Shown here: piece after piece, positions 6,072 through 56,947 of the stretch
Numbering within the stretch: the first letter of the stretch is position 1
How the letters are laid out: every line of letters starts with the position of its first letter
Source of the DNA: Blastocatellia bacterium
GTDB taxonomy: Bacteria > Acidobacteriota > Blastocatellia > HR10
NCBI GenBank assembly: GCA_035573895.1
Contig: DATLZR010000073.1
Coordinates: 2,028-66,027 of the forward strand
Direction of reading: 5' to 3'
Length of the DNA stretch: 64,000 bases
The notes under the pieces: model-generated
What the model was told of the DNA's origin: nothing
Seen by the model: only the letters and a program-made list of their open reading frames with translations
The model's database searches: none
Translations under genes and position numbers: made by a program

Positions 6072-6521
6072 TCGGCCAGCGCTTTTGAGCGGAGGGGGCA
6101 AATTGTCGTGGCCGTAACCGCGAGGTGTGCCCTTCATTCAGTGTCTCTGAAACCCGCCCAACCGGCTTTCTATCACGGGCGGCTGCACGTGGAGCGGGGG
6201 ATTAAACGAGGAGACTGGTCCCACGGTAAATAATCGGCTCGCGTTAAGCCACCCTGCTTTTCGCGGAGGCTTTTCAAAGAAAGCTGTTCAGCGGGGACGA
6301 ACCGGCACTGCCTGTTATGACAGGCAGAGCAGGACGTCAAAGGTGAACCCCTTTGTTCGCCGATTCGCAGCGCCAGGAGCGGGCCAGCATGCTCTATATG
6401 GACTTCCCCCGGCCGAAGCGTCAGGCTCCGGATCATACAAGCCCGCCGGTCAGCTTCGTCGCCTGTTATACTAGGAGCGACGAGCCCCCGGCTCGGTGAG
6501 ATGTGGAGGCCACCTCGACAC

Positions 6522-7091
6522 TCACTTGTCCTGAGGAGAAGACTTCTTGCCCGCGAGCAGACTACAGGCGTTCCGTGCACCCGACGGATCAATTGCCGTT
6601 GCTCCCTGTTCGATATGGCGTATGATGCCCTCCTTGTCTATAACGAACGTCGTCCGCCGTGCGACGCCCCGCTCTTCATCGAGAATCCCGTATTTTTTGG
6701 AAACCGCACGATTCAGATCGCTCAGTAGCGGAAAGGTCACGCCGATCTCCTTGGCAAATCGCTGATTGGCAAAGGGGCTATCAATGCTGATGCCGAGCAC
6801 GACGGTATCGGTCTCCTCAAACTTGGCCATATCAGCCTGATAGGCCTGAAGCTCGCGGGTTCAGCCACCGGTGAACGCGAGCACATAGAACGCGAGAACG
6901 ACGTTCTTCTTTCCTTTGAAATCTGACAGCCTGACCGGCTTAAGGTTTTGATCCTGGAGCGTGAAGTCGGGAGCCGGATCCCCAACCTTCACGCTCGTCT
7001 GGGGCGGGGCCGACGTCTGTTGAGCACTCCCGATCATACCCAGAAGCGAGAGAACCACTCCCATCACGACGGTTTGCGATCTGATCCTCAC
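6522..7091 (-). CDS. Exported AhpC/TSA (BCP/redoxin-type) peroxiredoxin with in-frame UGA at 6861-6863 at the peroxidatic Cys position; putative selenoprotein
   Basis: ORFs 6861..7091 and 6522..6830 share one frame. The junction reads VLAFYVLAFTGG-TGA-TRELQAYQADMAKFEETDTVVLGISIDS. There is a GTG start at 7089-7091 with AAGGAGG 9 nt upstream. The signal peptide is MRIRSQTVVMGVVLSLLGMIGSAQQ. Confidence 0.75.
6825..6846 (-). promoter_or_regulatory. Candidate bacterial SECIS hairpin
   Basis: The mRNA sequence GGCCUAUCAGGCUGAUAUGGCC begins at the 15th nt after the UGA. The fold has a 4-bp GGCC/GGCC lower stem, an internal loop, a 3-bp AUC/GAU upper stem and apical loop AGGCU. It was folded by eye only. 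Confidence 0.4.
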
Positions 7092-7294
7092 GGCAGGCGT
7101 CCTCCTTGAGATCGAGATTTCTCACATCTGACACGGCTCCATAGTCTACTGCTGAACGCCCAGGCAAGCAACAACCATTCCCATTACACGGAGCCGCTGC
7201 CCTGACGTCCTCGCTCGAAGCAAGGGCGGAATCAAAGGCCTGAGCTTGTGAAAAGGAAAAAGATAGCGGATTCCTGACACCGGTCGCGCAACAC

Positions 7295-47541: not shown

Positions 47542-50500
47542 TCAGCCACATCGGTCTGGCAGAGGTCTTGCCCCGGCCAGATACTGGATCAAGCGGACTG
47601 CGTCTTGTTCGTTGACACGCCCATCGCAGTTCACGTCAGCCGCTTTCAGCCCATTGCCTGTGAGCGGGCTTTCCCCTGTGAGGTGGCGAATCAGTCGAAT
47701 CAAATCCTGCTCGTTGATCTTCCCGTCAAGATTCACATCGCCGGGACGAACATTGGTGATGCGCACTCGTCCATCCCGTGTCTGGACGGAAAGAGGATTG
47801 GCATCTGGATCAGACGCCGAGATGGCTGAGAACAAGATCGTTGTGACCGATCCATCGGGCACCGTAGGGGCAATTTGCAGAGGGATGAAAGCCACAGGGC
47901 CGCCTGCGCTCGGAAGAGTCGGTACGGGGAATTGAAGAGGAGGCAAAATGAGAATGGTCACCTGACCCCGAATCGCCGTGTTCACGGAGAACTCAAAATC
48001 TGTCGGGACAGCCGCGCCCCGTGTTATGGCTTGAGGATTTGACACCGAGAGAATCGCTGGATCGAATTCGATGGTGAATCGCAGAGCGGAAATACCCGTT
48101 CCATCACTGAGCATCACGGGGAGGGCGATCACACTTCCTGCAACAGCATCAAGATCAGGAACACTGAGCATCCGAACTCTCACACCCTGACCCAATGCGG
48201 CCACATCAACTCTCGTCATCCCGGCATCATCTCCCGTGAACGTAATGACGCCACTTTCGGCTCCTTCCTGGGTTGGGGCAAAGCGAACGAGAACAACCTG
48301 TTCGCTGCCGGCGGTAAGTGTGAAGGGAACGGCAGGTGAACTCACCTGGAATCGGGGATTGTTGCTGACGGCGTTTATGATGACGGATGCCGCCATGCGA
48401 TTACGAATCGTCAGCGGGCGATCAACGCTTTGCCCAAGGGCGACCGACCCGAAGTCAAGACTGAGTGGAGACACCTCGAACGCAGGTGCGAATATCCCCT
48501 CTCCGGTCAGGGATATATCAATTGCGGGCTGCTCGTCAGCGTTGCTTCGGATCGTGAGAAGGGCTGTCTGCGGTCCCCGATTTCGCGGGGCGAATCGTAT
48601 CACCGTCTCCGCCTCAGTCCCGGGGCGTAGCCTCAGTGGAAGCGGCGGAGAATGAAAAACGAATTGAGCGTCGCTCATCACCGCCTGCTCCACGGTGAGC
48701 GTGGCATTGCCCGTATTGCGGAGGGTCAGCGTTCGATCGGCAAAACTGCCCACCATCACCGTTCCAAAATCGAGCATCATGGCCGACACGGACAGCCGTC
48801 GTACAGCTCGTTCCCCGCTGCCTGTTAGGGTGACGACAATTGATGGACGATTGGGATCGTTAGAAGAGATACGGGCAGTGGCTTGCTGAGGGCCTTCGCC
48901 GACTGGGCTGAAGCGCAGCATCACGTCCTGATTGCTGCCGGGATCCACCGTGAAGGGAATCGAGGGGGCGACGACGGTAAATGATGAGGCACTTATATCA
49001 ACGCCGTTCACAGTGAGCGGCAGATCTCCTTCGTTAACGATGTTCAACGCCCGCTCGCTAGCTTCTCCCACAGCCACGCTCCCGAAATCGAGTGAATCGG
49101 GCGTTGCGCGGATACCCGGCCCCCGCGCCCCCCGACCTGTTAGTGCCACCAGCACCGTCGGCCGTTCCGGATCATTACTGGTGATTGTGAGCCGGCCCGT
49201 ATGCTCGCTCCTGTCCGGAGGGGTATAGCGAACCGTGATCGTTTGACTGGCTTGACTCGACAGAGTGAACGGCACAAGGGCTCCGCTCAACGTAAAAACG
49301 AAACTCTCGCTCGCTATCCCGGTCACCGTCAGGGGAGCTGTCCCCACGTTTTGCACTGTCAGCGTGAGGCTCTTCGATTGACCAACCATCACCGGGCCGA
49401 AATCCAGCGCCTCGGGCGTTACCGCGATGACGGGCCGAATGGGAAGGAGTTCTACACACCTGGAGAATTCTGACGTATTTCCCCCGCTGCTTGTGACGGT
49501 TGCCGTAATGAACTGGCGTGCCGTCGAAGGGAGAGAAATCGTGATGAAGAAATTGGTGGCGCCGGTGCCGTCGGTCGCTATACTCGTTACCGTGAGCGGT
49601 CTTTGGCCCTGTCCGAACCCGGACGCATCGCACGCAGTGTTGGAGAACACCTCCAGTCGAAAGCCCGTCCCCGGAGTGCTATTGAGACTTCCGCGAATCG
49701 TCGCCGTCGTATCTGAATACGTCGCCGCCGTGAGGGTGGGGGAATTTTGTAAGTCATTGGCTCCTCCGTCGAGGTCTCGCTCATCATTGGGCGTCACGCC
49801 GTCGCCGCCCAGATCAATCCCCAAACCGGTATTGGAAAAGATCGAGTTCGAGAGGATGGAGTTCCCGGTCCCTGACTGAACAATCACCCCGCCGCCTCCG
49901 TTGAATGCAATGATATTACCGGCAGTATCCGTCGCTCCACCGATGAGCGTCGTGCTCGCTGAGGCCGTCACCAAAATTCCCGCTCCGCCATTGCCCAGGG
50001 GTGACGTTGCGTCAACGGCCACCCCAATGGCATTGCCTTGCACAAGATTGCCCGTCGCACTGCGTCCGTAAATTTGAATGCCTTCACCACGATTGGCAGC
50101 GATGATATTTCGTGCTCCGCGACTCGTCCCCCCCACCGTATTGTTTTGAGTTTCTCCGAGAAAAACTCCCGGCCCACCGTTGCCTAAGGCTGCCATTCCT
50201 GTTACGGTCGTACCGATGAAGTTTCCTTGAATGAGATTCCCCGCGGCACCCTGAAAGGAATTCAGATTCCCCACAGCAACGCCTCCGGACACGCTCAGCG
50301 TGGGGACGGGCAGCGGTTTGGTATTTCCCGAAATGATATTTCGCTCAGCCGCCGTTGTACCTCCGACGACATTGTTGACCCCACCGAGAATGACCACACC
50401 ACCCGAATTGGCTATGGAACTCGAGCCGCTGACATCCGTACCCAGATAATTCCCCTGAACGCGATTCTGCCGTGCCGTGGCCGTAGCAATACCAACGGCG

Positions 50501-52470
50501 ATGAGATTGCCGGAGATCACATTTCGAGCGGTCGCAGTCGTCCCTCCGATGATGTTTTGGGGACCGGTCACGATCACGCCTGCCAACCCATTGCCGAGAG
50601 CGCTCCGCCCGGCGGCATCCGTGCCGAGGAAATTGCCCTCAACGATATTGTTCGCCGATGCAAGAACAATTGCGCTCCCCCCCGAATTCAGAAAATCTCC
50701 GGACACGAGGCGCACAAAATTCACATTGAACCGATTGATGACAAGTCCCCGTAACACCGAGGTTCCTCCCCGAACGGTCAACCCGTTGACACCCTGGCCG
50801 GCCCCGGCCCCATTGATCTCCACCTTGCCAGCCGCCTGCGTTGTTCCGTCAATCGTGACTGATTCGGTGATATCGGGCAGCGGTGATCTCAGTGCAATCG
50901 TGGGGACTTGGTCCCCCGGGATCGCAAACTGAATGACATCGGGACCGGGACTCGAATTGGCATCCAGAATGGCCTGGCGCAACGATCCCGGCCCGCTATC
51001 GCCGGTGGTGGTCACGGTGAATGTCTGGGCAGCCGTTGACATCACCAGTGTTGGTGCGATATCTCCCTGGCGCATGACAACAAGGTCACTGATGGCATCC
51101 ACATTTAGGCGGAGGGACTGGATGCTCACTAGTACCTCTCTGAGCTTAAGCGAAGCGATCAAATCTAGAGATGCCCGTCTCCGGATAGAGCCGCGATCAT
51201 TTTCTCCTGAAAGCGGCTGCGAAAAGATCCGGATTTCCCGCTCCATCGGTGATACAACGAGAAGTTCCTCAGCCGACAAGCCCGATAGGCGGCTGGCAAG
51301 AAGATGATTACCAGGTCCGGGATCGGGTATGGCAGGGACCGGACTCTGCCATTGCTCCTTAAGGAGCGCGGGCCTTGGGGAAAGACTCCCTTCCGCACCA
51401 AGCTCACCACTTTCTTCCCCGAACAGATGGAGTATTCCGAACTCATCGAGCACAGCAACCTCAGAGCGATAATCCGGATCGCGAACAAAATCACCAACAG
51501 CGAGCGAGACTATCCGAGCCGGAAAAGGCACGGCTTCAATCGTGGGCGGTGGGACAGAACGGCTTACAATCTCCGGCTGCGATAGCTTTCGGTCGCGCCC
51601 CCTGAGGAGAAAAAGGTGCTGTCCCGCTCCGACAACAAGGTCAATTGTGTAGTCGTCATCGAGCGGACCCACACCCAGAGCAGTAACCAGATCCGGTAAA
51701 GGGATCTTTTCCGGGAGACTCCAGGCTGCTCCGTTCGGTCCCTCAAATATGAGAAGTGCGGATTCGTCCTCCCGCTCGACGGCGACAATGACATCTCCCA
51801 GTCCATCTGTGCGGTTGATGTCCCCACCGGCCAGGGCTGTTACTCGCCCGCCGAGATCAACCTGTTTGCGTCGGAGAAATCCGCCACGCCCATCTCCAAA
51901 GAGATAGTGAAGCGTCATGCCACCGCGCCGGGCAACAGCAAGATCCTGATGACCATCAGCATCGAAATCTCCCGAAAGTATGAAATCAGGCGCTTCGGCG
52001 GCGACAAACACCGTTGCGGGTAGCTCGAAAGGTTGAGCGCGTCCAGGCTCCTGATCAAAACCGGGCGTCTGTTTTCCTCGTTCGGCCCACGCCGCATGGC
52101 TTCCCAGCATAAGCGCCAGAAGCCCCCCACCGGGACCGATATAACCGCATACCAGATCTGTTGTCCCATCCTCGTCAAAATCGCCCGCCACCAATGCAGA
52201 AGGACTGACGAGTCCCCGGTTGAACAACGCCTTAATCCCTGCCGGAGCCTCAAAATGAAGAGGCAGCGGGGAGACCTCCTTCAATCTGATTCGATTCGCC
52301 TGCTCGTGCAGCCGGACAATCCGAAGATCAGGCTCGCGAAGGTCCGCGAATCGCAAGTCAGCAAGCCCTTGACGACGGAAGGATTCTTCCCCCCCGGAGA
52401 TGACGCGCGGAACCAGGCCGCAACAGATCCCAACGGACGCAACGAGACAAAAAAGTTCTTTTCTCCGCAT
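47542..52470 (-). CDS. Giant secreted multidomain protein: FG-GAP/VCBS repeats, CSLREA-type N-cap plus right-handed beta-helix, four Ig-like (ASH/HYDIN, choice-of-anchor-D-like) repeats, cohesin-like domain, type I dockerin
   Basis: The start is set at MRRKELFCLVASVGICCG (ATG 52468-52470), giving 1642 aa. Domain motifs are GDFDEDGTTDLV and GDFDADGHQDLAV for FG-GAP, GSLRQAILDAN for CSLREA, four LDFG.V.VG.....L...N.G...LTV units, and the dockerin GDVNLDGKINEQDLIRLIRHL...ADVNCDGRVNEQDAVRLIQYL. Confidence 0.85.
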   Translation of the reverse strand: MRRKELFCLVASVGICCGLVPRVISGGEESFRRQGLADLRFADLREPDLRIVRLHEQANRIRLKEVSPLPLHFEAPAGIKALFNRGLVSPSALVAGDFDEDGTTDLVCGYIGPGGGLLALMLGSHAAWAERGKQTPGFDQEPGRAQPFELPATVFVAAEAPDFILSGDFDADGHQDLAVARRGGMTLHYLFGDGRGGFLRRKQVDLGGRVTALAGGDINRTDGLGDVIVAVEREDESALLIFEGPNGAAWSLPEKIPLPDLVTALGVGPLDDDYTIDLVVGAGQHLFLLRGRDRKLSQPEIVSRSVPPPTIEAVPFPARIVSLAVGDFVRDPDYRSEVAVLDEFGILHLFGEESGELGAEGSLSPRPALLKEQWQSPVPAIPDPGPGNHLLASRLSGLSAEELLVVSPMEREIRIFSQPLSGENDRGSIRRRASLDLIASLKLREVLVSIQSLRLNVDAISDLVVMRQGDIAPTLVMSTAAQTFTVTTTGDSGPGSLRQAILDANSSPGPDVIQFAIPGDQVPTIALRSPLPDITESVTIDGTTQAAGKVEINGAGAGQGVNGLTVRGGTSVLRGLVINRFNVNFVRLVSGDFLNSGGSAIVLASANNIVEGNFLGTDAAGRSALGNGLAGVIVTGPQNIIGGTTATARNVISGNLIAVGIATATARQNRVQGNYLGTDVSGSSSIANSGGVVILGGVNNVVGGTTAAERNIISGNTKPLPVPTLSVSGGVAVGNLNSFQGAAGNLIQGNFIGTTVTGMAALGNGGPGVFLGETQNNTVGGTSRGARNIIAANRGEGIQIYGRSATGNLVQGNAIGVAVDATSPLGNGGAGILVTASASTTLIGGATDTAGNIIAFNGGGGVIVQSGTGNSILSNSIFSNTGLGIDLGGDGVTPNDERDLDGGANDLQNSPTLTAATYSDTTATIRGSLNSTPGTGFRLEVFSNTACDASGFGQGQRPLTVTSIATDGTGATNFFITISLPSTARQFITATVTSSGGNTSEFSRCVELLPIRPVIAVTPEALDFGPVMVGQSKSLTLTVQNVGTAPLTVTGIASESFVFTLSGALVPFTLSSQASQTITVRYTPPDRSEHTGRLTITSNDPERPTVLVALTGRGARGPGIRATPDSLDFGSVAVGEASERALNIVNEGDLPLTVNGVDISASSFTVVAPSIPFTVDPGSNQDVMLRFSPVGEGPQQATARISSNDPNRPSIVVTLTGSGERAVRRLSVSAMMLDFGTVMVGSFADRTLTLRNTGNATLTVEQAVMSDAQFVFHSPPLPLRLRPGTEAETVIRFAPRNRGPQTALLTIRSNADEQPAIDISLTGEGIFAPAFEVSPLSLDFGSVALGQSVDRPLTIRNRMAASVIINAVSNNPRFQVSSPAVPFTLTAGSEQVVLVRFAPTQEGAESGVITFTGDDAGMTRVDVAALGQGVRVRMLSVPDLDAVAGSVIALPVMLSDGTGISALRFTIEFDPAILSVSNPQAITRGAAVPTDFEFSVNTAIRGQVTILILPPLQFPVPTLPSAGGPVAFIPLQIAPTVPDGSVTTILFSAISASDPDANPLSVQTRDGRVRITNVRPGDVNLDGKINEQDLIRLIRHLTGESPLTGNGLKAADVNCDGRVNEQDAVRLIQYLAGARPLPDRCG
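48181..49428 (-). repeat. Four tandem Ig-like domain repeats of about 100 aa inside the giant protein
   Basis: The repeat units start near ORF-track aa 1037, 1141, 1247 and 1352. Each begins (A/S)LDFG(P/S/T)V and ends ..L(T/L)G.G. Confidence 0.7.
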
Positions 52471-52784
52471 GATGACCCTTCCCGAACACCCAAGGGCGCC
52501 AAGCTCGGCCAGCATTATATCCCTGACTCAGGTGCTGTCAAGCACATCTTCAAAAGCAGCTGGTGCTCGCAGGCGTCGCGTGCGGCGATAATGCCCGTCG
52601 AGGACTTGCGGCGTCGGCTCAGGATGCATCCGATGCCGCTTGATTGTTTTTCTCAAAGGCCTCCGCACGGGATTCGCTCACGATAGCCTTGCCATGCGGC
52701 AGGCTCGCTTACCGGCAGAGCTGGCTTCTCGCCCCGTCACTGGTCACAGCACTCCTGGCCCTGGATTTGCTATCATTTTTCCTC

Positions 52785-54101: not shown

Positions 54102-54554
54102 TCAGTCACAGCTCATGCGTGAACTTGAACTATCCTTTCCCTCGATCTTCAGTGCCCGAGATCGGTAGCCGGCGCTTCCATCAGCGTATCTTCCCCAGAG
54201 ACGCTCTGACAAAACAGTCAAGATACAGCTTCCCAGGATCACGGCCAGACCAATCCATATCCACCCACGTGTCCCGAGCGGAAGCACCCCCAATCCATCA
54301 GCCACAGAAGCGGCAGCGCCGATCAAAAAGAAAGGTCCGGTGAAATAACAATGTACCCTGCGGCAACGATGGGCATTGATGAGGCACGCCGTACCGGCCA
54401 CAACGAGTGAAGTTGCCCAGATCACCGTGCGAGTGATTGAGCTGACGAAGAACCCCGCAACGAATACTGCCAGGGGTAATTTCCAGAGCAGGAGCGACGC
54501 GCGTCTGTTTGCCACGAGGTCACGTGGATCAGTTGTGCAACATGGCGTCCTCAC
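54102..54554 (-). CDS. Hypothetical 4-TM membrane protein with Cys/His clusters
   Basis: The 150-aa ORF has an N-terminal CC and the in-membrane motif C-x4-H-x-C-x3-H-C (ACLINAHRCRRVHCYF). It is the last gene of the metal cluster and overlaps the upstream gene by 26 nt. Confidence 0.5.
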   Translation of the reverse strand: MRTPCCTTDPRDLVANRRASLLLWKLPLAVFVAGFFVSSITRTVIWATSLVVAGTACLINAHRCRRVHCYFTGPFFLIGAAASVADGLGVLPLGTRGWIWIGLAVILGSCILTVLSERLWGRYADGSAGYRSRALKIEGKDSSSSRMSCD

Positions 54555-55086
54555 AGTTCACCTCCTGTGAACATAACAGTTTCATCGCTCGTGGAGGATC
54601 ATTGGGCTCATGGGCGATCCCTCGTAATTTCAATCCCCTGCGCACGACTTCGGTCACAACTCCCAGACAGCAGCGGCCCGAAGGGTTTTTGATTTCGCAG
54701 GCGCAGCGGCCTGCTTTGACCTGCGCCCGGATGTAGTCGGGGATCGTCGTTCGCCCCGTCGCTTCGATCTCGTCATGAATCATCTTCTCGGTGATATTGA
54801 AGCAGTAGCACACGGGCACGGGGTCTTCAGTTTCCTTCAGTCCGACGCGGACCTTCACATCGGCTTTGTGAAAGTACGAATCGGCCTCATTGGAAAAATA
54901 AACGACCGAACAGGTCGGCGTCGCGCAAAAGAAGTAAGGATGATCGGTCAAGCGTGGCAGAGAGGACTCCTTGAGCAGGTGCTCTATGGTCCTCCGCTTG
55001 ACGGGCTTCCCCGTCTCTCCGCAGACGCGACAGCGAGAGTGAATCTTCGCCGAAATAGGGGGCATATCGTCGCCTCCCTCTCTCAT
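54529..55086 (-). CDS. Cys-rich metallochaperone-like protein resembling the Zn/[2Fe-2S] N-terminal domain of archaeal CopZ (BFD-like)
   Basis: A Zn-ribbon-like region (CRVCGE...FFCATPTC) is followed by CYCFNITEKMIHDEI...AGRCACEIKNPSGRCCLG. The start ATG overlaps the upstream stop (ATGA). Confidence 0.6.
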   Translation of the reverse strand: MREGGDDMPPISAKIHSRCRVCGETGKPVKRRTIEHLLKESSLPRLTDHPYFFCATPTCSVVYFSNEADSYFHKADVKVRVGLKETEDPVPVCYCFNITEKMIHDEIEATGRTTIPDYIRAQVKAGRCACEIKNPSGRCCLGVVTEVVRRGLKLRGIAHEPNDPPRAMKLLCSQEVNCEDAMLHN

Positions 55087-55892
55087 AATCCTGGCTTAAA
55101 TCCCATCTGACCGATCAGTTCAATCAGGCGGTCGAGTGTGATCTTCTCCGGGTCAAAAGCCACGACAGCCTGTTTCTTTTCAAAGGTGACTTCAACGTAT
55201 TTTACTCCCTCGGGCTGGGTGAGCGCCTGTCGGACCGACTCAGCGCAGCCCGCGCAGGTCATCCCCTCGATGGGAATTGTCGCCGTCACAGATTCGACCG
55301 TAAATCCTCCCTTCTTGAGCGCTTCGACCAAACGATCCATCTTCACCCGCGCTGGCTCGTACTCGACGATGGCCTCGCCTTTTTCGTAGCTCGCCATCGC
55401 CGAGTGCACGCCGGAAATTTCCTTGAGCGCAGCCTCCAGGCTCGTTGCGCAGCCGCCGCAGGTCATGCCTTTGACACCGAGTCGCAGCTTCATCAGCCGC
55501 TCGGTCGCTGCCGGTTGCCTTGACTGTAAGAGTTCGCCTGGCCGACGATTCAAAGCCGCCGAGAGTCGTTCCGAATAATAGGGAAATGTCGCCAACAAAA
55601 GGATCACAACCGTTACAATCCAGAGGGTGATCTTATTCCAGCGCGAAGCGCTTCCGATTGTACACGCGCCCTCCCCACATGCGATCTCCCGCTTCCGATA
55701 GGAGAAAAAGAAAGCGGCGGCCAGCAGCACGAAGGCAATGCCCAGTAAATACGGTCGCCACGCTTCAAACACAGTGGCCAGACCAAGGCTGCCAATACCA
55801 AGGAGTGCGGTCGCCAACGACCCGATGCAACAAAGTGACGCCGTGACCGCAGCTATGATGGATGCGCCCAGTGTCAACTTTTCTCTCATCAT
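55083..55892 (-). CDS. MerT-like 3-TM metal transporter fused to two C-terminal HMA (MerP/CopZ-like) domains
   Basis: TM1 carries a CC pair (TASLCCIGSL), and the loop between TM2 and TM3 carries CGEGAC. Two GMTC(G/A)GC HMA domains follow. SD GGAGG precedes the ATG. Confidence 0.75.
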   Translation of the reverse strand: MMREKLTLGASIIAAVTASLCCIGSLATALLGIGSLGLATVFEAWRPYLLGIAFVLLAAAFFFSYRKREIACGEGACTIGSASRWNKITLWIVTVVILLLATFPYYSERLSAALNRRPGELLQSRQPAATERLMKLRLGVKGMTCGGCATSLEAALKEISGVHSAMASYEKGEAIVEYEPARVKMDRLVEALKKGGFTVESVTATIPIEGMTCAGCAESVRQALTQPEGVKYVEVTFEKKQAVVAFDPEKITLDRLIELIGQMGFKPGL

Positions 55893-55940
55893 TATTCCTC
55901 CCCGAAAATGACCTCATCCCCCGCCGGAGGAAAGGCTCCT

Positions 55941-56022
55941 GCGGATTGCTTATCCGCCAGCACTTTTCATCCGCTGGCATGTCTGTCTTCTTCAGGCACA
56001 GAGTGCGCGAAAGATTCATGAC
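55941..56022. promoter_or_regulatory. Cluster of overlapping dyad symmetries upstream of the merT-like gene; candidate MerR-type operator region
   Basis: The elements are GCGGAT (55941-46) / ATCCGC (55952-57), a second ATCCGC (55969-74), GCCAGC (55955-60) / GCTGGC (55973-78), and GCAC-AGA-GTGC (55996-56006) inside a longer imperfect dyad. I could not place a convincing -35/-10 pair with a 19-20 nt spacer. Confidence 0.25.
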
Positions 56023-56080
56023 AATCCCCGTTCGCTTCAGGGTTTTTCGTGATCTCTCCTCATTGATTCTGTCTGGCTTT

Positions 56081-56533
56081 TCATTTTACCTTCGTTATGG
56101 AGGCGCCTCCGAGGGCGAATAAAATCCTCAATGAGGGGGCAGGATTTACGTTAGCGATGGCACGTTCACATTCGGTTTTGTAAACCGACAGTTCGCGCCG
56201 AAGCCGTTGAATTTCCTGGTAGCGACGACCGAGTTCTTCGAGTTTTCCCTCGATCATCTTAATGACCTGAGAACAGGTCTGGGGATCGGCCCTGTCCAAG
56301 CTCAGCAGTTGCTTGACCTGATCGAGCGTGAAGCCGAAGCTCTGCGCCCGCTTGATGAAACCGAGCCGTTCCACCACGCGTGTCTCGTAGAGGCGATACC
56401 CGCTCAGGGTCCGCATGGGTCTCGGCAAAAGGCCCAGCCGCTCGTAATAGCGGATCGTATCCCGGCTCAGGCCGCTTCGCGCCGCGACTTCGCCGATCCT
56501 GAGCCGGTTGCCTTCTTCCCGGTTCACCTTCAT
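56081..56533 (-). CDS. MerR-family transcriptional regulator
   Basis: The HTH reads LRIGEVAARSGLSRDTIRYYERLGLLP and a coiled-coil dimerisation helix follows. The start is set at MKVNREEGN (ATG 56531-56533); the ORF-track start is 56656. Only two Cys are present (QTCSQ, TECER). Confidence 0.8.
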   Translation of the reverse strand: MKVNREEGNRLRIGEVAARSGLSRDTIRYYERLGLLPRPMRTLSGYRLYETRVVERLGFIKRAQSFGFTLDQVKQLLSLDRADPQTCSQVIKMIEGKLEELGRRYQEIQRLRRELSVYKTECERAIANVNPAPSLRILFALGGASITKVK

Positions 56534-56947
56534 CAGCAGTAGTATAAACCCTCGAGCCTGCTCCAAAGTCAATAAAGAAGTTTTCAAGTCCACCATCAAA
56601 GCTCCCCGGGAGTAAATATCCCGGGATGTTATGTGATCCCCAAAATGTCTCCACACGAGAAATCACGGGTGCAGTCAGGGGGCAAGAATTTCTCACGAAC
56701 GCCCTATTCCAGACGCAACCAATGGTCAGTAATCGCCCTCATGGAGAAGGTCACGATTGCAGGAGCCTTTAATCGGCGCTGGTTCCGAACATGTTTCATG
56801 AATCCTTCCGGCTAAACCTCATCCACTGGGCAGCAATGGTCGGCTCTTTACCTCCTCCGTGAGCAAATGTCCTGACAGAACTTTGAGGCGGTCCCTTTCG
56901 GATGGAAGTCGGTCCCGTGGACTCGCCGAATCGTTGGTGTCCTGCCC

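Follow-up and report, generated by a model that had tools for sequence, protein, structure and literature searches.

A probable exported selenocysteine peroxiredoxin, split in two by open reading frame calling, in a Blastocatellia bacterium and its relatives

We analyzed a peroxiredoxin gene carried by a 64,000-nucleotide stretch of contig DATLZR010000073.1 from a Blastocatellia bacterium (assembly GCA_035573895.1; hereafter the window, whose own positions are used throughout). Located on the minus strand at 7091..6522, this gene very probably encodes an exported, AhpE-like peroxiredoxin in which selenocysteine (Sec), inserted under the direction of a selenocysteine insertion sequence (SECIS), replaces the peroxidatic Cys, as judged from sequence comparisons. 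The gene forms a single frame with homology to peroxiredoxins, its internal UGA stands at the catalytic position and is conserved across species, and the codon is followed by a conserved, covarying hairpin. Overall, the evidence supports a single selenoprotein gene of a known type that was mis-split by open reading frame (ORF) calling.

A peroxiredoxin frame interrupted at the catalytic position

In the ORF listing, the gene is divided between two minus-strand pieces: 6861..7091, of 76 amino acids (aa) with a GTG start, and 6522..6830, of 102 aa with an ATG start. An earlier reading made from the window sequence alone (the sequence-only reading) had proposed that the two belong to one frame broken only by the TGA at 6861-6863, and both the sequence and its translation confirm this: from the GTG at 7091, 189 codons lead to a terminating TGA at 6522..6524, the sole interruption is the TGA at 6863-6861 (codon 77, the proposed Sec codon), and the junction across it reads KKNVVLAFYVLAFTGG*TRELQAYQADMAKFEE. 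The terminating TGA, on the same strand, is not followed by the conserved hairpin motif described below. Translation signals likewise correspond to those first described, with a Shine-Dalgarno (SD) sequence, AAGGAGG, read from the minus strand at 7101..7107, i.e., 9 nucleotides (nt) upstream of the GTG. Neither half is plausible as a stand-alone protein, as had been argued: the upstream fragment stops one residue short of the active site, and the ATG of the downstream ORF is the 11th codon past the internal TGA, with no SD-like sequence preceding it.

We next characterized the read-through protein through profile and structure searches, in which Cys was substituted at the internal stop. The Pfam AhpC-TSA profile (PF00578) was covered end to end (positions 1-124 of 124) by residues 36-160, with E = 9.4e-42 and 142.3 bits against a cut-off of 26, and the Redoxin Pfam profile was also matched. 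Among solved structures, the best match was AhpE/Rv2238c of M. tuberculosis (E = 5e-32, 62/135 residues or 46% identical), followed in the PDB by archaeal BCP-type proteins (1.5e-30). The internal TGA aligns exactly with the catalytic Cys of AhpE (...LAFTGIC...), which bears out the proposed location of the stop at the peroxidatic position: the active-site motif reads V70-L-A-F-T74-G-G-U77, with T74-G-G-[UGA]77 opposite T-G-I-C of AhpE. Within this motif, Thr74 hardly varies (conserved in at least 90% of sequences), and the conserved peroxiredoxin active-site Arg, Arg146 (codon 6654..6656, minus strand), is invariant in alignments A1 and A2 and aligns with the Arg of the ANRGTF segment of AhpE.

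At the level of narrower families, no NCBIfam model reaches its cut-off for the read-through protein. The PrxU equivalog NF040737 scored 87.3 bits against a cut-off of 270, and since 87 bits falls so far below the 270-bit threshold, the protein is not a PrxU orthologue. Matches to the NCBIfam models of ResA and TlpA were weak, and the UxxC/CxxC motif of Prx-like oxidoreductases is absent from the protein.

The first residues of the protein carry a predicted Sec-type signal peptide ("Sec" here denoting the translocon), MRIRSQTVVMGVVLSLLGMIGSA, encoded at 7023..7091 on the minus strand, with cleavage predicted after Ala23 and before QQ. The composition of this region, i.e., positive charge at its start, then a hydrophobic core of 14 residues and small side chains at positions -3 and -1, agrees with the signal-peptide-like N-terminus noted initially, as does its conservation: an equivalent hydrophobic N-terminus ending in A-x-A/Q is found in every full-length homologue of alignment A1. 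The N-terminus is consistent with a signal peptide of the Sec type, and the mature enzyme is therefore expected to act in the cell envelope or periplasm.

Conservation of the UGA and its downstream hairpin

To place the gene among its relatives, we relied on a search of one genome per species, which returned 80 loci from different GTDB species, nearly all of them metagenome-assembled genomes of Acidobacteriota (Pyrinomonadaceae, Blastocatellia, Terriglobia, and Chloracidobacterium). The best match in these species-level genomes reached 74% identity. TGA occupied the position of codon 77 in 80/80 of the loci, and likewise in every further homologous locus that was inspected, and the same TGA gene is present on the complete Pyrinomonadaceae chromosomes OY970389.1 and OZ244585.1 (L027 and L030). 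Combining the 80 loci with other homologous contigs yielded 85 distinct gene segments, 41-82% identical to the window protein. None of these 85 segments contains a further in-frame stop between codons -41 and +100, and amino acid conservation acts on both halves of the gene, so that the relatives are intact where a decayed gene would have spoken for a pseudogene. The UGA column itself behaves as a classical Cys/Sec pair: all close homologues have TGA, and distant homologues of ~55% identity, with the segment YPAAFTGGC, carry Cys (P0008, P0045, P0056, P0061, P0075, and P0083).

A second conserved residue lies near the C-terminus. Cys176 (codon 6564..6566, minus strand), a candidate resolving residue within the motif AIDPxGAxxAC, is invariant in the Sec and Cys forms of alignments A1 and A2, and Cys is the majority residue at this position, in 99% of the 85 DNA-derived segments. 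The presence of this additional invariant Cys suggests a 2-Cys-like (Sec/Cys) cycle rather than a 1-Cys one, in which Cys176 would resolve the selenenic acid.

Downstream of the UGA, the putative SECIS stem-loop spans 6815..6858 on the minus strand and comprises a conserved upper hairpin flanked by a weaker lower stem. The upper hairpin, GGCC-U-AUC-(AGGCU)-GAU-AU-GGCC at 6846-6825, begins 15 nt past the UGA, with its apical loop A-GGC-U at 6838-6834 and a bulged U at 6829. The folding energy is -18.5 kcal/mol (z = -2.5) for the 49 nt that begin with the UGA, and -9.3 kcal/mol for the 22-nt core (6846-6825). Across 80 distinct homologous 49-mers, the minimum free energy (MFE) averaged -10.9 kcal/mol and ranged from -4.8 to -18.5, so that a few relatives do not reach -7.5. 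The consensus structure was derived from an alignment of 84 distinct sequences of 63 nt, taken from the window and its relatives, with columns numbered from the U of the UGA as 1. RNAalifold paired columns 19:38, 20:37, 21:36, 22:34, 23:33, 24:32, 25:31, and 26:30, leaving a bulged U at column 35 and a loop that is GGC, or A-GGC-U when the terminal A-U pair is taken as part of it.

The sequence-only reading had likened this fold to bacterial SECIS elements, and the comparison with the published model upholds it. [quoted passage not shown] Here, the loop is 3 or 5 nt long, column 27 is G in 84/84 sequences and column 28 is G or U, the upper stem has 8-9 bp with one bulged U, and the spacing from the UGA to the apical loop is 23 nt (columns 4-26), with both the core (-9.3 kcal/mol) and the 49-nt stretch (-18.5 kcal/mol) below the energy threshold. 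The loop also fits the pattern N1-G-[G|U]-N-N2, A26 pairing with U30.

The pairing itself is supported by the alignment: standard pairs occupy 96% of cells, a share that drops to 11-63% once the 3' partners are displaced by 1-3 columns, and the observed pairing or covariation score was reached in 0/500 shuffles. Variation is concentrated at pair 21:36 (GC 58, AU 13, CG 8, GU 2), of which both columns are third codon positions, with a few changes at pairs 24:32 (UA 82, CG 2) and 18:39 (GC 65, AU 3). Most other pairs do not vary, and are thus uninformative on pairing but reveal a strong nucleotide-level constraint at synonymous sites. For instance, the Tyr codon at +7, inside the hairpin, is TAT in 83 segments and TAC in 2, compared to 43 TAC and 42 TAT at codon -8; the hairpin Gln codon at +8 is CAG in 85/85, compared to 58 CAG and 21 CAA at codon +20; and the hairpin Asp codon at +10 is GAT in 83/83, compared to a near-even GAC/GAT use at most other Asp codons. 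Overall, normalized synonymous entropy was 0.49 in codons +1..+14 against 0.83 in other conserved codons (Mann-Whitney p = 8e-4), and mean pairwise nucleotide identity reached 91% within the hairpin core, compared to 65% over the remaining gene. Within the window, the combined pattern of TGA and hairpin core occurs once, at 6863-6826, and was recovered in 0/100 shuffles.

Three further observations were made. The UGA lies in a UGA-A-C context with a conservation of at least 90% (window 6859-6863, with codon +1 at 6858-6860; alignment A3, columns 1-6), and at codon +1, which lies outside the conserved hairpin, 65/77 Thr codons are ACG. Separately, at least eight related loci carry a tandem Sec-peroxiredoxin paralogue ~0.5-2.3 kb from the main copy (first base of the TGA at L045:4663, L047:1903, L061:4643, L071:4715, L077:3492, L078:3391, L093:4754, and L095:4723), with the motifs FYI[KR]A[FGS]TPG-U or FYVFANTPG-U and the same SECIS core as the main copy. 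Finally, a scan of the window for other selenoprotein genes gave 153 stop-to-stop pairs with a single TGA, an approach without discriminating power in this 58% GC DNA.

Proposed mechanism and competing readings

From these data we infer Sec insertion at the UGA and export of the protein to the periplasm or cell envelope, as well as the peroxidase activity of the enzyme and its reductant. Specifically, translation would initiate at the GTG at 7091, and the UGA at 6863-6861 (codon 77) would be decoded as Sec through SelB, which, loaded with Sec-tRNA(Sec), would bind the stem-loop 15-37 nt downstream (6846-6825) and deliver the Sec-tRNA(Sec) to the ribosome. Translation would then continue to the ordinary TGA at 6524-6522, and the 23-residue signal peptide would route the product via the Sec translocon to the cell envelope. 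There, the U77 selenolate, activated by Thr74 and Arg146, would reduce a hydroperoxide and be converted to a selenenic acid, which Cys176 probably resolves as a selenenylsulfide, and an envelope thiol reductant would then recycle the enzyme.

Several results weigh against this scheme. Machinery for Sec insertion did not appear in the DNA at hand: ARAGORN recovered only ordinary tRNAs, and no tRNA-Sec, from the 64-kb window and 60 related loci, Pfam scans of 40 window ORFs returned no SelA, SelB, or SelD, and motif scans of 744 kb (window and related loci) returned no sel genes. On the RNA side, Rfam gave no match at gathering score or at permissive thresholds, with only chance-level hits (E ~9) in 6750-6900, and true covariation rests mainly on pair 21:36 and a few sequences at 24:32 and 18:39 because most of the hairpin is invariant. 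When DNA of the Cys forms was used as a control, two of four distinct sequences lacked the hairpin (~-3.6 kcal/mol) but the other two folded at ~-13 kcal/mol. On the protein side, the canonical Pro of PxxxTxxC is Val70 in the window (codon 6882-6884); Val replaces Pro in nearly all Sec forms, Ile in a few, and the paralogues have I or V, whereas Cys-form homologues retain the Pro (YPAAFTGGC, compared to YVLAFTGGU here). In addition, the prediction of the signal peptide relied on visual inspection and on its conservation across homologues.

The two folding Cys forms (L105 and L108) have their ~-13 kcal/mol hairpins in the 49 nt from the TGT/TGC codon, the site of the SECIS in Sec forms. These hairpins may be relics of a former SECIS, left by a Sec-to-Cys conversion, or may have arisen by chance.

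The replacement of Pro by Val in nearly all Sec forms raises the alternative that Sec is inserted into a protein acting as an envelope thiol:disulfide oxidoreductase or redox sensor rather than a peroxidase. The weak NCBIfam matches to ResA and TlpA point the same way, as does the gene context: no neighboring gene is conserved across the 80 related loci, the commonest family being Bax1-I (16/80 loci) and others HSP20 or unknown, and no reductant partner was found there. However, the protein has two hallmarks of peroxidases, the TxxU motif and an active-site Arg that is invariant; it is devoid of the UxxC/CxxC motif expected of Prx-like oxidoreductases, and the proteins it matches best are true peroxidases (AhpE, BCP, and 2-Cys peroxiredoxins). 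We consider this alternative improbable, although it is the strongest of those weighed here. For the peroxidase reading, the same lack of a conserved neighbor means that no reductant can be proposed from gene context.

Slightly less probable again is a decoding of the UGA by a route other than Sec, i.e., by a tRNA(Sec)-like opal suppressor charged with Cys or Ser (selC*-type or allo-tRNA) or by near-cognate read-through, in which case the active-site residue would be Cys or another residue instead of Sec. Such a route is suggested by the Sec machinery missing from the window and the related loci scanned, by the allo-tRNAs of Acidobacteria, which are possible nonsense suppressors (PMC5389517), and by the selC* tRNA(Cys) and SelB paralogue of delta-proteobacteria, which may insert Cys at UGA (PMC5389517). 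Yet selC*/SelB* have not been reported from Acidobacteria (PMC5389517), and if Cys were the residue needed, a plain TGC or TGT would suffice, as in the Cys-form homologues. The retention of TGA together with a costly conserved hairpin in 80/80 species is instead a classical selenoprotein signature, and Sec use is documented in this phylum: SelA, SelB, and selenoproteins are recorded for Solibacter usitatus (PMC1794560), Occallatibacter riparius is counted among the Sec users (PMC12013277), and Sec-containing hydrogenases are reported from Acidobacteriota (PMC13582414). The window's phosphoglycerate kinase, with 61-73% identity to proteins of "bacterium HR08/HR10" and of Acidobacteriota metagenome-assembled genomes, marks the source as an uncultivated Acidobacteriota-like bacterium.

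The remaining alternatives have next to no probability. The fragments of 76 and 102 aa put out by gene callers could suggest a pseudogene decaying through a nonsense mutation, or two independent small genes, but the TGA is shared by 80/80 loci of different species, no other stop or frameshift is found in the 85 segments, both halves are conserved, the upstream half ends one residue before the active site, and the downstream half lacks an SD. Equally, the Trp shown at this position by several database homologues could suggest a sequencing or assembly error for TGC/TGT or a sense codon (genetic code 4 or 25), but these "W" entries are TGA in the DNA, TGA is an ordinary stop that ends 31/44 Pfam-supported ORFs in the window, the peroxiredoxin gene included, and two independent Logan assemblies, each built from its own sequencing run (L100, SRR7882662; L101, ERR14841024), agree on every base of the 570-nt gene, which excludes the assembly error that the sequence-only reading had named as a risk.

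Known relatives, annotation, and significance

Sec-containing peroxiredoxins of the TxxU type, predicted by Zhang, Gladyshev, and colleagues, are an established bacterial selenoprotein family, represented by 12 proteins in a 2006 survey (PMC1794560), 91 in a 2016 survey, and 253 in GOS data. The closest precedent is "Anaeromyxobacter_dehalogenans_2", which the supplement of the 2006 survey includes among its selenoproteins with the segments ...FYTKAFTPGUTRELSAY...AIDPAGAITSC... (PMC1794560). This homologue from the Sec-using Anaeromyxobacter dehalogenans is 46% identical to the window protein over 147 ungapped residues and shares with it the AhpC/TSA fold, a peroxidatic Sec in T-x-x-U, a UGA followed by a hairpin in the coding region, a residue other than Pro at the canonical position (FYTKAFTPGU, compared to FYVLAFTGGU in the window), and the C-terminal AIDPxGAxxxC. 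It differs in that the window protein comes from an Acidobacteriota-like lineage and has the local motif VLAFTGGU; in addition, the listing discusses neither export nor the sub-clade of the window protein (PMC1794560). Since this homologue was already listed with the missing Pro and the C-terminal Cys motif, the sub-family is not new, and the surveys together with this homologue agree with the initial view that the family is not new either.

Other known systems share parts of the proposed scheme. PrxU of Eubacterium acidaminophilum is an experimentally verified Sec-peroxiredoxin (Söhling et al. 2001; NF040737), and is similar in having Sec in place of the peroxidatic Cys. Unlike PrxU, the window protein is nearer AhpE and BCP, and carries a predicted signal peptide together with a C-terminal Cys that is invariant. 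AhpE (PDB 1xvw, 1xxu, 4x0x, and 5id2) in turn shares the ...LAFTGxC... segment and the conserved Arg, but uses Cys, retains the canonical Pro (FFPLAFTGIC), and aligns only with window residues 30-162, with no counterpart for the signal peptide or the Cys176 tail. AhpE is a cytosolic 1-Cys enzyme. Peroxiredoxins of the cell envelope can be reduced via membrane electron transporters, as for PprX of Caulobacter with TlpA/ScsB, a Cys-based system for which the reductant chain is identified. PprX resembles the window protein, for which export is predicted, in being an exported peroxiredoxin in an oxidizing compartment. The window gene has no conserved adjoining partner gene.

The window hairpin was also compared to the bSECISearch model and the E. 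coli fdhF SECIS, with which it shares an in-gene stem-loop just past the UGA, a G then G/U opening a small loop, a spacing within 16-37 nt, and a bulged U in the upper stem. Its sequence is unrelated to that of the fdhF element and its bulged U is on the 3' side. The window element is also unusual in its sequence conservation across a whole phylum (91% identity).

Around the gene, scans for promoters and terminators gave nothing above chance. A gap of ~450 nt (6072-6521) separates the peroxiredoxin stop from a convergent AMP-ligase gene; this gap has no Rfam match and no convincing terminator, and its sole ORF is one of 139 aa at 6173..6592 on the minus strand. Elsewhere in the window, a metal-handling cluster on the minus strand (54102-56656) comprises a regulator of the MerR family (56081-56656), a MerT domain in fusion with two HMA domains (55083-55892), a protein with a zf_CopZ domain (54529-55086), and an unassigned ORF of 150 aa (54102-54554). 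A 1657-aa protein, also on the minus strand (47542-52515), combines ASH/HYDIN-type Ig-like repeats and FG-GAP with a C-terminal cohesin and dockerin, a surface-protein architecture that is unusual in an Acidobacteriota-like lineage.

The mis-annotation predicted from the window sequence is real and widespread, because public entries either carry Trp at the TGA or hold the C-terminal fragment. The closest protein-database entries show Trp at the Sec position, where the DNA codon is TGA, and the GenBank entry GBC77913.1 (P0241), "Putative peroxiredoxin [bacterium HR08]", is a C-terminal fragment only; altogether, P0001-P0007, P0010, P0014, and P0241 have either Trp at the TGA or a C-terminal fragment of 106-107 aa. 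The Trp entries suggest that the gene caller picked a TGA = Trp code on short contigs. At 80/80 returned loci, the peroxiredoxin gene and its homologues are split, truncated, or Trp-translated in public databases, and a clade-specific protein model combined with the conserved SECIS would repair many of these records.

Some features, each an incremental addition, appear to have gone unremarked before: the ubiquity of the gene across Acidobacteriota with a SECIS that hardly varies, the conservation of the predicted signal peptide, and the tandem Sec paralogues in at least eight loci. More tentatively, we raise the possibility, to which we give rather less than even weight, that these genes make up a phylum-wide clade of exported selenoperoxiredoxins in Acidobacteriota (Blastocatellia/Pyrinomonadaceae, Terriglobia, and Chloracidobacterium) that is undescribed as such. 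Members of this clade would share a non-canonical VxxxTxxU active site, a resolving Cys near the C-terminus that does not vary, and a near-invariant SECIS, and would often have Sec paralogues in tandem.

The understanding of how selenoproteins work is unchanged by these results, but they provide a large natural alignment of one SECIS element, useful for studies of SelB recognition. Taken together, they suggest that many soil Acidobacteriota use selenium for extracytoplasmic peroxide defense. If the phylum-wide clade is real, its conserved SECIS could be used as a probe for more acidobacterial selenoproteins, and Sec decoding, along with a selenium need for envelope peroxide defense, would be far more common in dominant soil bacteria than is currently annotated.

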